This document shows positions 38,074 to 63,045 of a stretch of 64,000 bases of DNA, in pieces. Position 1 is the stretch's first letter; the number at the start of each line of letters is the position of its first letter. The DNA is from Chrysomallon squamiferum (lineage: Eukaryota; Animalia; Mollusca), in contig CM022673.1 of assembly GCA_012295275.1 (NCBI GenBank), forward strand, positions 29,574,001 through 29,638,000, in the 5' to 3' direction. Below the pieces are notes generated by a model. The model was not told the DNA's origin, did no database searches, and worked only from the letters and a program-made list of their open reading frames with translations. Position numbers and translations under genes: made by a program.

Positions 38074-38475
38074 TCAGTTACGTTCGAATGCCGGATTCGT
38101 AAATGCACCGTAACGAGCCTCACTGCTGTTGCTGTCCATATTGTTATTCTCTCTCACTATCTCAATGGCTTGTCTGAAAATCCTTCGACGAAGGAGCAGG
38201 TTGTTCATTTCCAAGGTAAACCAGACCATTGTGGTTCCTATGACCATCGCACCCAGGATGCATATCGAGTACAGGAGGAGAGCAAATTGAAGATGGCGCT
38301 GTTCATTGTTCTGAGTACGACTCCACCCTGATTTTAGCAAATTATAGAACAGAGAAATTCCTGCAGCAGTCGTAATGAGACAAATGGTGAACAGTAATCC
38401 GCACGCCTTCAGACGTCGTTGTAAATTCATCGGATAAAGGCGACCATATTCTCGCATTATTTCACGCCACTGACC
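38074..38475 (-). CDS. MARCH-like E3 ligase variable terminal exon V9 (2 TM + tail, 133 aa)
   Basis: Acceptor GTATTGAATTCTCAG|GGT, phase 0. GQWREIMREYGRLYPMNLQRR-TM1-loop-TM2-WFTLEMNN..RRRIFRQAI..YGAFTNPAFERN*. Confidence 0.8.
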   Translation of the reverse strand, partial: GQWREIMREYGRLYPMNLQRRLKACGLLFTICLITTAAGISLFYNLLKSGWSRTQNNEQRHLQFALLLYSICILGAMVIGTTMVWFTLEMNNLLLRRRIFRQAIEIVRENNNMDSNSSEARYGAFTNPAFERN

Positions 38476-41014
38476 CTGAGAATTCAATACACGTGAATGA
38501 GACTTTTTTTTGTTGCAAAAATTAAGAAGAAATAGTAAATGCTAACAGACCCCATTTATTATTCTATGAGATTAAAAAAATAATAAATAAATAAATAAAA
38601 ATATATATATATATATATATATATATATATAAATTTTAAAGAAATGAAAACTAAAGAACAAACATAGAAACAAAGACGTTATGAGCTCTTTATACAATGA
38701 GATGCCAAATAATTTTATTTCGATTATTTTAATTTTAAAAGACATCTGTTTTGGAATTTAAAACCCACTTACTTTTTAATTTAAAAAAAATTAGATGTGA
38801 AAAATTCATGGATTAAAAATATATAAGTCATGGTTTCTTATAAACTACATTCAAACGTATATAGGCCAGAACAGAAATGTAAAGTTTCGAAGAAAAAAGA
38901 TGTTAAAAATGGTTTGTGTTTTGTGCATTTGTATATGTATTTTGTACGCGCCAAAATATTTACAACATTTAGAAAAATAATAACAGTGATGATGATGATG
39001 GCAGTAATCAATACGATAATGATGATGATGATATTAATAATAAATTTAAAAGGGAAAGAAAAGAATACGCAACATTTAACACTGTTCTCAAAACATCTGA
39101 TTTTGAATGTAGACACAAATTAAACAAGTCACGTTTTTAAAGTAAATGCCTTTTTAGTTTACATTCTTTGTCTTTTAGTATCCTCTTCCTATAAGTATTG
39201 AATAAATAAACTCCAAAAGTAAAATTGTCCATTTTAAATAAGTATGTATCATTTTCAAATAACACGTAAATACTACTCAGTATTACCATTTTAAACTATA
39301 TATAATCTACTCTCTCCTCTCTAAACTAAGGAGCTAAATCGTAATCTGTTAATTTCTAGTCTATCTCTCTCTCTCTCTCTCTCTCTCTCTCTCTCTCTCT
39401 CTCTCTCTCTCTCTCTCTCTCTCTCGTTTCTCTCTGGTTCTTCGTTCTGTCATTCTCTCTCTCTGTATACAAATCAAAGACATATAAACAATGTATGTTC
39501 TCTCTATGTCTCTCTTTCTATAGTTTTTAAATGAAAGAATTCTGATTTAATAGTTGAAGAGATAGACCTGACAGTTTGAGCTATAGCTATATGGATCCAG
39601 TGTTACCATATCACGACAAAAACCTGTGTACTTTAGAAGAAGTCAAATCTTGGTCGCCAGTGTATGATGTCAGTAAGTACTCAGTGCAAGTAGAGAATGT
39701 AATAAGACCCATCTAGTCCTAGACAATCCGGCAACTGAACTGTGTGCTAATGTCAGCGAGCAATAGCTACCGTGTCAGTACAGAATAATATATCAAGTGA
39801 TTCCCATAAATAATGAAAAATAATTTATACGTCCATTGTTACATTAAATACTGCATTCTGAAAATAAACTTATATACGTTCATTCGTTCATTACTGGAAT
39901 ATCTATTATAATTCGGCTTTTATCTATGTTCTCTCTCTCTCTCTCTTTCTCTCTCTCTCTCTCTCTCTCTCTCTCTCTCTCTCTCTCTCTCTCTCTCTCT
40001 CTCTCTCTCTCTCTCTCTCTCTCTCTCTCTCTCTCTCTCTCTCTCTCTCTCTCTCTCTCTCTCTCTCTCTCTCTCTCTCTCTCTCTCTCTCTCTCTCTCT
40101 CTCTCTCTCTCTCTCTCTCTCTCAATTAGTTAAAATGGTTTAAAGAATAACGCTTTTTGGTTCATGGTTCTTTATTTGGAATGAAATAATAACATTTTTC
40201 CTCCTACGACGTTTCAATCTGTTAGGTTGTATTTTCGTTCGGCTTCACTAACTATTTATTCATCAGTTACGCTAGTTATATGATTAAACAGTTTGAGAGG
40301 CGACAAGCGAGTTACACAAACTCAATAAGGCGAATGTATGTATCAAGTGTATAAATATATGTCAGTATGTGTGTATATATTGATAGATAGATAGACAGAG
40401 CGACATCCAGACAGATAGACAGACAGATAGACAGGCAGACAGATAGAAAGATACAGAAAGAGGATTGCGACTAGTATATATTTGTACTTTACTTACCGAA
40501 TTTCGTTTTTAAAAAATCAAACTCTTTCTTACTGCAGCAACATTTTATTGCATAATAAGCATTTGTGTATTTATTTGTGATTAATCAAACATTAAAATAT
40601 TCCAACAAACAAAGAGGAAAAGTATGATTCGTTGAAATTATTGCAATGTTTTTTAACGGTATAGTCACTAATATTTTTTCTATGTTTATCAGAACTTTAT
40701 TCATTTATTTTAAACATTATATATATATATATATATATATTTCACATATACACATACTGTATATTTGCATTATAAAAGTATATGTACAGATTTATTTTTG
40801 ATCAGTATATTCTGCATATATATTTTTACCTATATATTTGAATTTTTTTTTTGTTTGTTTGTTATTATTTTATTTTATTATTTTATTATTTTATTTATAT
40901 CCATCCGGATATTGTATGAACCGCACATTTCATTGCAGAGAGGAATTATTTGAAAAGAGATGACTCTGAACTGAGGTGATACGTGATTCAAACACGCTCG
41001 ATGTTTTTCTTGCT

Positions 41015-41416
41015 TCAGTTACGTTCGATTGCGGGATTCGTATATGCACCGTAACGAGCCTCACTGCTGTTGCTGTCCATAGTGTTATTCTGTCTCACTA
41101 TCTCAATGGCTTGTCTGAAAATTCTTCGACGAAGGACCAGGTTGTTCATTTCCAAGGTAAACCAGACCATTGTTGTTCCTATGACCATGGCACCCAAGAT
41201 GCATATCGAGTACAGGAGGAGAGCAAATTGAAGATGGCGCTGTTCATCGTTCTGAGTACGATTCCACCCTGATTTTAGCAAATTATTGAACATGGAAATT
41301 CCTGCAGCAGTCGTAATGAGGCAAATGGTGAACAGTAATCCGAACAGCTTGAGACGTCGTTGTAAATTCATCGGATAAAGGCGACCATATTCTCGCATTA
41401 TGTGACGCCACTGACC
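41015..41416 (-). CDS. MARCH-like E3 ligase variable terminal exon V8 (133 aa)
   Basis: Same acceptor and phase as V9. Intact ORF, close paralog. Confidence 0.8.
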   Translation of the reverse strand, partial: GQWRHIMREYGRLYPMNLQRRLKLFGLLFTICLITTAAGISMFNNLLKSGWNRTQNDEQRHLQFALLLYSICILGAMVIGTTMVWFTLEMNNLVLRRRIFRQAIEIVRQNNTMDSNSSEARYGAYTNPAIERN

Positions 41417-62229: not shown

Positions 62230-62356
62230 CTGTTTCTGCTTCTGTCAGCTGACAGATACGACATCGAATCGACGCATTCGACACGTTGGAATTTCCTGTC
62301 AAACGACTTTTTCTGGAAGACTCGGAAGTACTTCCCATGAGAACCGGTGAACTAGT
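62230..62356 (-). CDS. MARCH-like E3 ligase constant exon: N-terminus and first CxxC of RING-CH
   Basis: Not in the ORF track. Acceptor TTTTATACAG|ACT. TSSPVLMGSTSESSRKSRLTGNSNVSNASIRCRICQLTEAET(G). Donor G|GTAGAT (phase 1). Joined to the next exon it gives C-x2-C-x15-C-x-C-x7-H-x2-C-x3-W-x8-C-x2-C, the C4HC3 RINGv signature. Confidence 0.88.
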
Positions 62357-62967
62357 CTGTATAAAACAGAAACTTCAAATTCACTAACACAAATATTTCT
62401 ATCCAGTCTTATTTATTTATTTATTTATTTTGTTTAAAATCCTCGACTCCTGTATAGAGAGAGAGAGAGAGAGAGAGAGAGAGAGAGAGAGAGAGAGAGA
62501 GAGAGAGAGAGAGAGAGAGAGAGAGAGAGTACCACAAAATGTTGTGTTAAAATAAAAAGTTGTAAATAGAAGTCACTCATACAGTGATTGTGTATTTATT
62601 TCATTTTATTTATTTATTTATTTTCATCAAGTATCATAACTAAACCACAGTAATCCCAAACACGACGAATCAATGGAAATTAAAAATGCGATTATTAATT
62701 TTACTATTCACCAATGATACATTCTGTCAGTTAATTTCTAACAGGAAAAAACAGTAATATTAAATGGAGAAAAACTACAAAAACCCCCATCTAAATAGAT
62801 GTTAGTTCGACATATTTTCTTTATGTTCAAAGTGTAAAAAATTAGTTTTAAGATAAATGCTAAATGAAAGCAGTAGATTGAGTCATTATACGGATGATTA
62901 CTGTTTCTTCTGTTTAATATTATAATTATTATCATTGTTAGTTTAACAAAGAAAGCAGAACACTAAC

Positions 62968-63045
62968 CATTTGGTCCGCTTTTGATGATTTAGAAGATCA
63001 GTTTTGTGTTGGGTAGAACGCTTGGTGTCCTGCTTCGTGCTCCAT
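62968..63045 (-). other. Putative first exon of the MARCH-like gene, ending in ATG|GTTAGT
   Basis: ATG at 62970-62968 sits directly before a GT donor, phase 0 and in frame with the 62356 acceptor. A 15-codon uORF lies at 63045-62998. The 5' boundary is unknown, and an alternative in-frame ATG is at 62338. Confidence 0.45.

Follow-up and report, generated by a model that had tools for sequence, protein, structure and literature searches.

Can one gene supply a set of E3 ligases with different targets by exchanging its last exon? This question is raised by a 64,000-nucleotide (nt) stretch of the Chrysomallon squamiferum genome (contig CM022673.1, positions 29,574,001 to 29,638,000 of the forward strand; 'the window', to which all coordinates below refer), in which a MARCH-type RING-CH domain is encoded on the minus strand upstream of nine paralogous exons, here called cassettes V1–V9. 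How MARCH ligases pick their substrates inside the membrane is poorly understood, as put in the available part of PMC8319528. We conclude, at a probability of roughly 0.7, that the window holds one MARCH-type gene whose constant head is spliced to alternative last exons and that the ligases so produced likely mark different membrane proteins for ubiquitin-dependent removal. Of the architecture itself, one RING head with alternative last-exon cassettes, we are nearly certain; distinct substrate sets for the individual cassettes are probable, by analogy with MARCH proteins studied elsewhere.

Results

A single RING-CH head

The window consists of AT-rich animal DNA throughout and is laden with microsatellites. 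Two constant exons on the minus strand carry the RING-CH domain: exon 2 (62230..62356) encodes a Ser-rich leader and the first Cys pair, exon 3 (61546..61721) the remainder of the domain and a linker. Together they hold the eight C4HC3 ligands in order (C-x2-C-x15-C-x-C-x7-H-x2-C-x12-C-x2-C). Exon 3 is identified by a Pfam RINGv match (40.1 bits on the window RING, cut-off 21.6), exon 2 by its sequence and its RNA splice to exon 3, and in the PDB the RING of c-MIR (2d8s, E 1.4e-10) and K3 (1vyx, E 2.2e-9) match best. Both the C4HC3 domain and its position N-terminal to two membrane helices are features of MARCH RING-CH ligases.

Exon 3 ends in a single phase-0 donor (GTGAGT after 61546). When the RING exons were searched against the 64-kb window with tblastn and blastn, no second RING copy was found; the next tblastn match had an E-value of 4.1. 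An earlier interpretation made from the DNA letters alone (hereafter the sequence-only reading) had placed a single RING-CH unit in the window, with none hidden among the V exons and with a phase-0 donor at 61546, and was right on each of these points.

Upstream, a putative start codon closes a plausible first exon (62968..62970, minus strand; ATG followed by a GTTAGT donor). RNA contigs extend 64 and 77 nt past the 5' end of exon 2 (lengths of 188 and 201, minus 124), translation could instead begin at an in-frame Met in exon 2, and in the orthologous protein of the snail Gigantopelta aegis four residues precede the exon 2 match. Provided that translation starts at 62970, the predicted products comprise 218–235 amino acids (aa). 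The region just before the putative first-exon ATG, at about 63045–63085 on the minus strand, contains a 15-codon upstream open reading frame (ORF) and a pair of CRE-like motifs (TGACGTCA and CGACGTCA).

Nine cassettes behind one donor

A profile search for V exons (nhmmer, E<=10) returned exactly nine matches in the 64 kb, the weakest being V5 (5e-23). All nine acceptors are AG, in phase 0 and at the homologous codon, where the sequence-only reading had put them. From the donor onwards, on the minus strand, the cassettes are V1 (58354..58722, 122 aa, two membrane helices), V2 (55760..56116, 118 aa), V3 (51881..52255, 124 aa), V4 (50134..50484, 116 aa), V5 (47403..47733), V6 (45706..46104, 132 aa), V7 (43626..44027), V8 (41015..41416) and V9 (38074..38475), the last three with 133 aa each. 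Eight of the nine are intact and open (116–133 aa) with 14 residues invariant among them, and each of these eight contains two 19-residue segments with hydropathy values of 1.8–3.15. V5 shifts frame after about codon 24; both its hydrophobic segments appear shortened, and it is nearest to V4 when the break is read as X. It is either a decaying cassette or an assembly error. The expectation of nine two-helix cassettes, each with its own stop, held for the eight intact exons but not for V5.

The intact cassettes form five classes (V1, V2, V3, V4 and V6–V9), 35–50% identical between classes, with synonymous divergence (dS) near saturation. Within V6–V9, protein identity is 85–91%, and the tandem units of 2–3 kb are ~90% identical in DNA. 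The 8–9 ligases of ~220–235 aa originally anticipated are about right in size if the start is 62970; in number they resolve into five diverged classes plus near-duplicates. We considered positive selection among V6–V9, which is not supported by ratios of nonsynonymous to synonymous change (dN/dS) of 0.39–1.11 on 4–10 synonymous changes. Pfam gave no family over cut-off for any of the eight cassettes. Of the tail motifs that recur among MARCH ligases, YxxPhi and a PDZ-binding end, YxxPhi is present in two of the eight tails (V6 and V9 only), and V1–V4 end in L or V, without S/T at -2.

The array also contains conspicuous repeats. A 44-bp minisatellite of 33.5 copies (54299–55776) runs from the last V2 codons through the likely V2 3' untranslated region (3'UTR), the first AATAAA behind V2 lies 1681 nt past the stop, and degenerate 45-bp repeats carry on at 53200–54030. 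Outside the array, 32447–33297 is a copy of the V8/V9-unit spacer (92–99% identical) with no V exon nearby; it is either a mobile element or what is left of an additional unit.

Splicing to at least three cassette classes

For the interval 61546–62356, in which exons make up a share of 0.37, the share of sampled words found was 0.36, 0.35 and 0.22 in the RNA runs X1–X3. Run X19, whose kind is unrecorded and which behaves as DNA, reached 0.81, and runs X4–X18 (0.05–0.06) were not counted as evidence. Exon 3 was covered in all three RNA runs, and the intron downstream of it was uncovered past its first two bases; in X19, one contig spans exon 3 together with its intron flanks. The splice between exons 2 and 3 is present in the loose ends of contigs from X1 and X2.

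A single contig from run X1 runs on beyond the donor for 12 nt, a sequence that within the window is confined to the starts of V6, V7, V8 and V9. Three contigs from run X2 leave donor 61546, with 22, 22 and 331 loose letters, and their consensus equals V1 over letters 1–22 and V2 over letters 23–30. Of all possible sets of three drawn from the nine exons and the intron, V1+V1+V2 alone fits both this consensus and the agreement of 0.93, and the V1 and V2 junctions are deduced from it. Donor 61546 thus uses at least three cassette classes (V1, V2 and V6–V9), three of the five intact ones, and the V6–V9 class is joined from at least 15 kb away, past five other cassettes. The alternative use of last exons from one donor, previously only proposed, is borne out by RNA for these classes and mirrored by six isoforms of G. 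aegis (see below); V1 is not the sole junction, and the one RING copy leaves none in front of each V exon.

Signals at acceptors and 3' ends

A branch-point-like pentamer lies at -23 to -26 in all nine V acceptors, and pyrimidines make up 50–62% of positions -20 to -5, versus 62% and 69% in the two constant exons. A conserved stretch precedes the acceptor. In V1, V4 and V5 it reads MLISQ, and its ATG stands in frame, five codons ahead of the acceptor; at that place V3 carries a stop in frame, and V2 and V6–V9 have no such ATG. Because of V3, V2 and V6–V9, we take this stretch for a splice signal rather than a start, and MLISQ was rejected as a translation start. AATAAA follows all nine cassettes, yet at a density of 2.8 per kb in the region chance suffices. 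Inverted repeats (the 25 longest of 4388) were microsatellites only. Two CU tracts in the first two array introns (60138–60237 and 57856–57959) complement GA tracts at 39360–45114, in the V7–V9 units, probably by chance in this microsatellite-rich genome.

The same layout in Gigantopelta aegis

A profile built from the eight cassettes matched 15 proteins among 1.84 billion representatives. Fourteen of the 15 were looked up; five are named, all five molluscan. A search of longer proteins with the cassette alignment returned nothing, its size floor of 234 aa exceeding the length of all G. aegis isoforms but one of the six. The best full-length profile match was XP_041366349.1 of G. aegis (Peltospiridae), and a search with this protein found six proteins, all of them G. 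aegis isoforms X1–X6 (XP_041366348-352 and 354; RefSeq automated models). RefSeq gives each of these isoforms of one gene the name of a different human MARCH. All six agree in residues 1–104, and six different modules start at the very residue at which the intron lies in the window. The head is conserved between the two snails (30/40 residues for exon 2, 52/58 for exon 3), the RING exon being 90% identical versus 36–58% for matched cassettes. An AlphaFold2 model of isoform X2 has helices at 121–152 and 159–208 (mean pLDDT 68); Foldseek gave no match at E<=0.001, with the c-MIR RING as top row. The comparison with related molluscs that had been suggested as a check recovered the same layout in G. 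aegis.

We placed 24 modules in a midpoint-rooted tree, which contains no vertebrate sequences and leaves out V5, P0008, P0009, P0012-P0014 and P0026-P0029. Nineteen cassette rows split from five outgroup rows (100/100). V3 pairs with isoform X5 (97/94) and V2 falls in a clade with X3 (92/90); V6–V9 group with X1 (90/89) and V4 with X4 and X6 (87/84), X6 being nearest to V4 (58%). Most cassettes have a partner in G. aegis, so the array is older than the split of the two species, and V6–V9 are a recent burst. Five cassette-only ORFs (P0001, P0003, P0005, P0007 and P0016), each with an ENA contig of 630,455 bp as its listed source, fall in the X1, X3, X4 and X6 lineages and include a recent X1-type pair. 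They probably come from a third species and likely represent the same array there, in which the X1 lineage has recently undergone a separate duplication.

A head followed by a module is also the plan of limpet, abalone and bivalve proteins. In three of seven metagenome loci (L001–L003; L004–L007 are weaker RING matches), the same exon 3 and phase-0 intron are followed by one module exon, and the ancestral last exon would therefore have held the whole module. The array may then have arisen by tandem duplication of this exon behind its phase-0 intron. Outgroup molluscs may have a single module and no array, as far as can be told from L001–L003, which reach only about 0.5–2.7 kb past the module exon; the Argopecten protein P0015 is itself labelled isoform X2. 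In our alignment A2, the outgroup modules share a longer inter-helix loop with a Pro-Trp/Tyr motif, which is mostly missing from the window and G. aegis cassettes.

A neighbouring gene

At 1633–2418 on the minus strand, repeated GW[F/H]T[D/E]F-G-KR units, corresponding to amidated W-x3-F peptides, lie in what is likely the last exon of a neuropeptide precursor. Pfam gave no family over cut-off for this product, which presumably resembles molluscan Wx3Yamide precursors.

Discussion

Alternative last exons and what they would exchange

Transcription would run through the constant exons into the array, where one acceptor is selected for donor 61546; the exon behind that acceptor brings a stop and, presumably, its own cleavage site. 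Because every cassette ends in a stop of its own and requires no donor for a further exon, each mRNA would carry one module. The choice is probably made by competition of weak-to-moderate 3' splice sites with cleavage and polyadenylation downstream of each cassette, a route that requires no docking-site RNA structure. Such a scanning-type route is the default for 3' clusters (PMC6191721).

The swapped exon spans the juxtamembrane linker, both helices, the loop and the tail, and the E2-binding RING would be unchanged across isoforms. In mammals, MARCH specificity resides in or near the membrane segments according to PMC8319528, and PMC10441400 adds evidence from the substrate side. Likewise, MARCH1/MARCH9 chimeras and the MARCH8–IL1RAP case, in the available sections of PMC4897099, place specificity in the membrane region, and the same sections state that MARCH dimers form through the helices. 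Exchanging the exon would therefore alter the substrate set along with the cytoplasmic tail. A conserved head, diverged cassettes and classes kept apart in both snails fit distinct targets, as far as sequences can tell.

Several observations weigh against this reading. The RNA data are contigs from three runs of one study (X1–X3). The overhang in run X1 is just 11 loose letters, over which the members of V6–V9 are indistinguishable, the V2 junction is deduced from a three-contig consensus, and X3 ends four bases before the donor and yields no junction. Junctions of V3, V4 and V5 were not seen in the contigs of the three runs, which attest presence, not absence. In G. aegis, the name LOC121381216 stands on isoform X5 only; in the tree, V1 and isoform X2 are unplaced and only one pairing between the window and G. 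aegis meets the starred threshold. Within V6–V9, there is no clear selection for difference.

The same architecture could also serve cassettes that are largely redundant for substrates and set apart by their 3'UTR, tissue expression, tail-directed localisation or dose. The near-identity of V6–V9 without a clear selection signal, the broken V5, the strongly different 3' regions (for instance the 1.5 kb minisatellite behind V2) and the tails, with YxxPhi in V6 and V9 only, would suit such redundancy. However, the five classes are as distant from one another as limpet, abalone and bivalve modules are (31–64%, 28 pairs), and most of them persist as separate lineages in G. aegis. We consider redundancy unlikely, though a serious alternative to distinct substrate sets.

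It is quite improbable that the choice is steered by long-range RNA pairing (a docking site with selectors, as in PGRP-LC) or by trans-splicing. Pairing has precedent in 3' variable regions (PMC6191721), and the long CU tracts of the common intron complement GA tracts among the V7–V9 units; microsatellites, however, occur all over the window. In a docking scan of one species, which covered the common intron and 400 nt upstream of six cassettes, no non-repeat intron window paired with all six upstream regions better than controls: the best worst-case value was -14.6 kcal/mol, and of 12 control regions 11 were stronger and one tied. Trans-splicing is not needed, as every cassette lies downstream on the same strand, so that cis-splicing suffices. 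Finally, that the V exons belong to separate genes or are orphans, with promoters of their own and a RING elsewhere, or that the array is an assembly artefact, is largely refuted: the single-copy status of the RING covers the 64-kb window only and V1, V4 and V5 have their upstream ATG, but RNA joins one donor to three classes, V3 has a stop at the place of the ATG that V2 and V6–V9 lack, one DNA contig holds exon 3 with its flanks, the V6–V9 units (~90% identical, with indels) are too diverged for haplotypes, and G. aegis has the same layout.

Alternative last exons with distinct targets thus remain our preferred reading. The sequence-only reading had raised, as speculation, a role in immunity or symbiosis. 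Endosymbionts live in the oesophageal gland of peltospirids such as G. aegis. In a bolder version, which we regard as doubtful, the array would be a switchable peltospirid ligase: a fast-evolving set of modules subject to birth and death would strip chosen receptors or transporters, by cell type, from the cell surface or from symbiont-containing vacuoles, so that symbiont tolerance would parallel K3/K5 immune evasion, and dimers between isoforms would multiply the repertoire. If it were true that cassette use tracks symbiont-bearing tissue, a host mechanism in chemosynthetic symbiosis would have been named. More generally, the locus is a natural domain-swap series, in which an identical RING is combined with five diverged modules here and with six in G. 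aegis, and the E3 repertoire would have grown through duplication of a last exon rather than of a gene, a route overlooked by gene-family counts.

Comparison with known systems

Like MARCH (MARCHF) and viral K3/K5 proteins, the predicted products combine an N-terminal RING-CH with two membrane helices and a basic cytoplasmic tail. Whereas vertebrate MARCH proteins come from separate genes with one module each, here one gene has eight intact modules. For MARCH splicing, the portion of PMC4897099 at hand mentions only two-isoform cases, for example MARCH10a/b. The main text of the vent-snail genome paper, so far as available (PMC7736800), does not mention a MARCH gene, and none of the literature matches listed describes a 3' cassette array for a MARCH ligase, in line with the earlier remark that no MARCH gene was known to have been described with such a layout. 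LOC121381216 of G. aegis is the orthologue, with the same head, the same junction residue and matching cassettes. It has six cassettes versus nine here; the X1 class is single there and fourfold here, and its isoform X4 has no clear counterpart in the window.

Clustered protocadherins and UGT1A, to which the sequence-only reading likened the layout, likewise combine tandem variable exons with constant exons, so that one shared part serves many specificities. Their variable exons are first exons and are chosen by promoters. The polarity here is the opposite: the variable exons are last exons, and the choice is attributed to 3' processing. A closer match is the 3' tandem-cassette class of Drosophila PGRP-LC, Pip (pipe) and CG42235 (PMC6191721), with which the locus shares constant 5' exons ending in one donor, duplicated homologous terminal cassettes and more than one cassette in RNA; the docking/selector pairing of PGRP-LC was not found in the scan of the common intron. 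The layout is thus of a known kind, and for a MARCH ligase it is present in RefSeq as automated isoform models. In PGRP-LC, Pip and CG42235 the cassettes encode a soluble domain for recognition or enzymatic activity, whereas here they encode the intramembrane targeting module of an E3 ligase.

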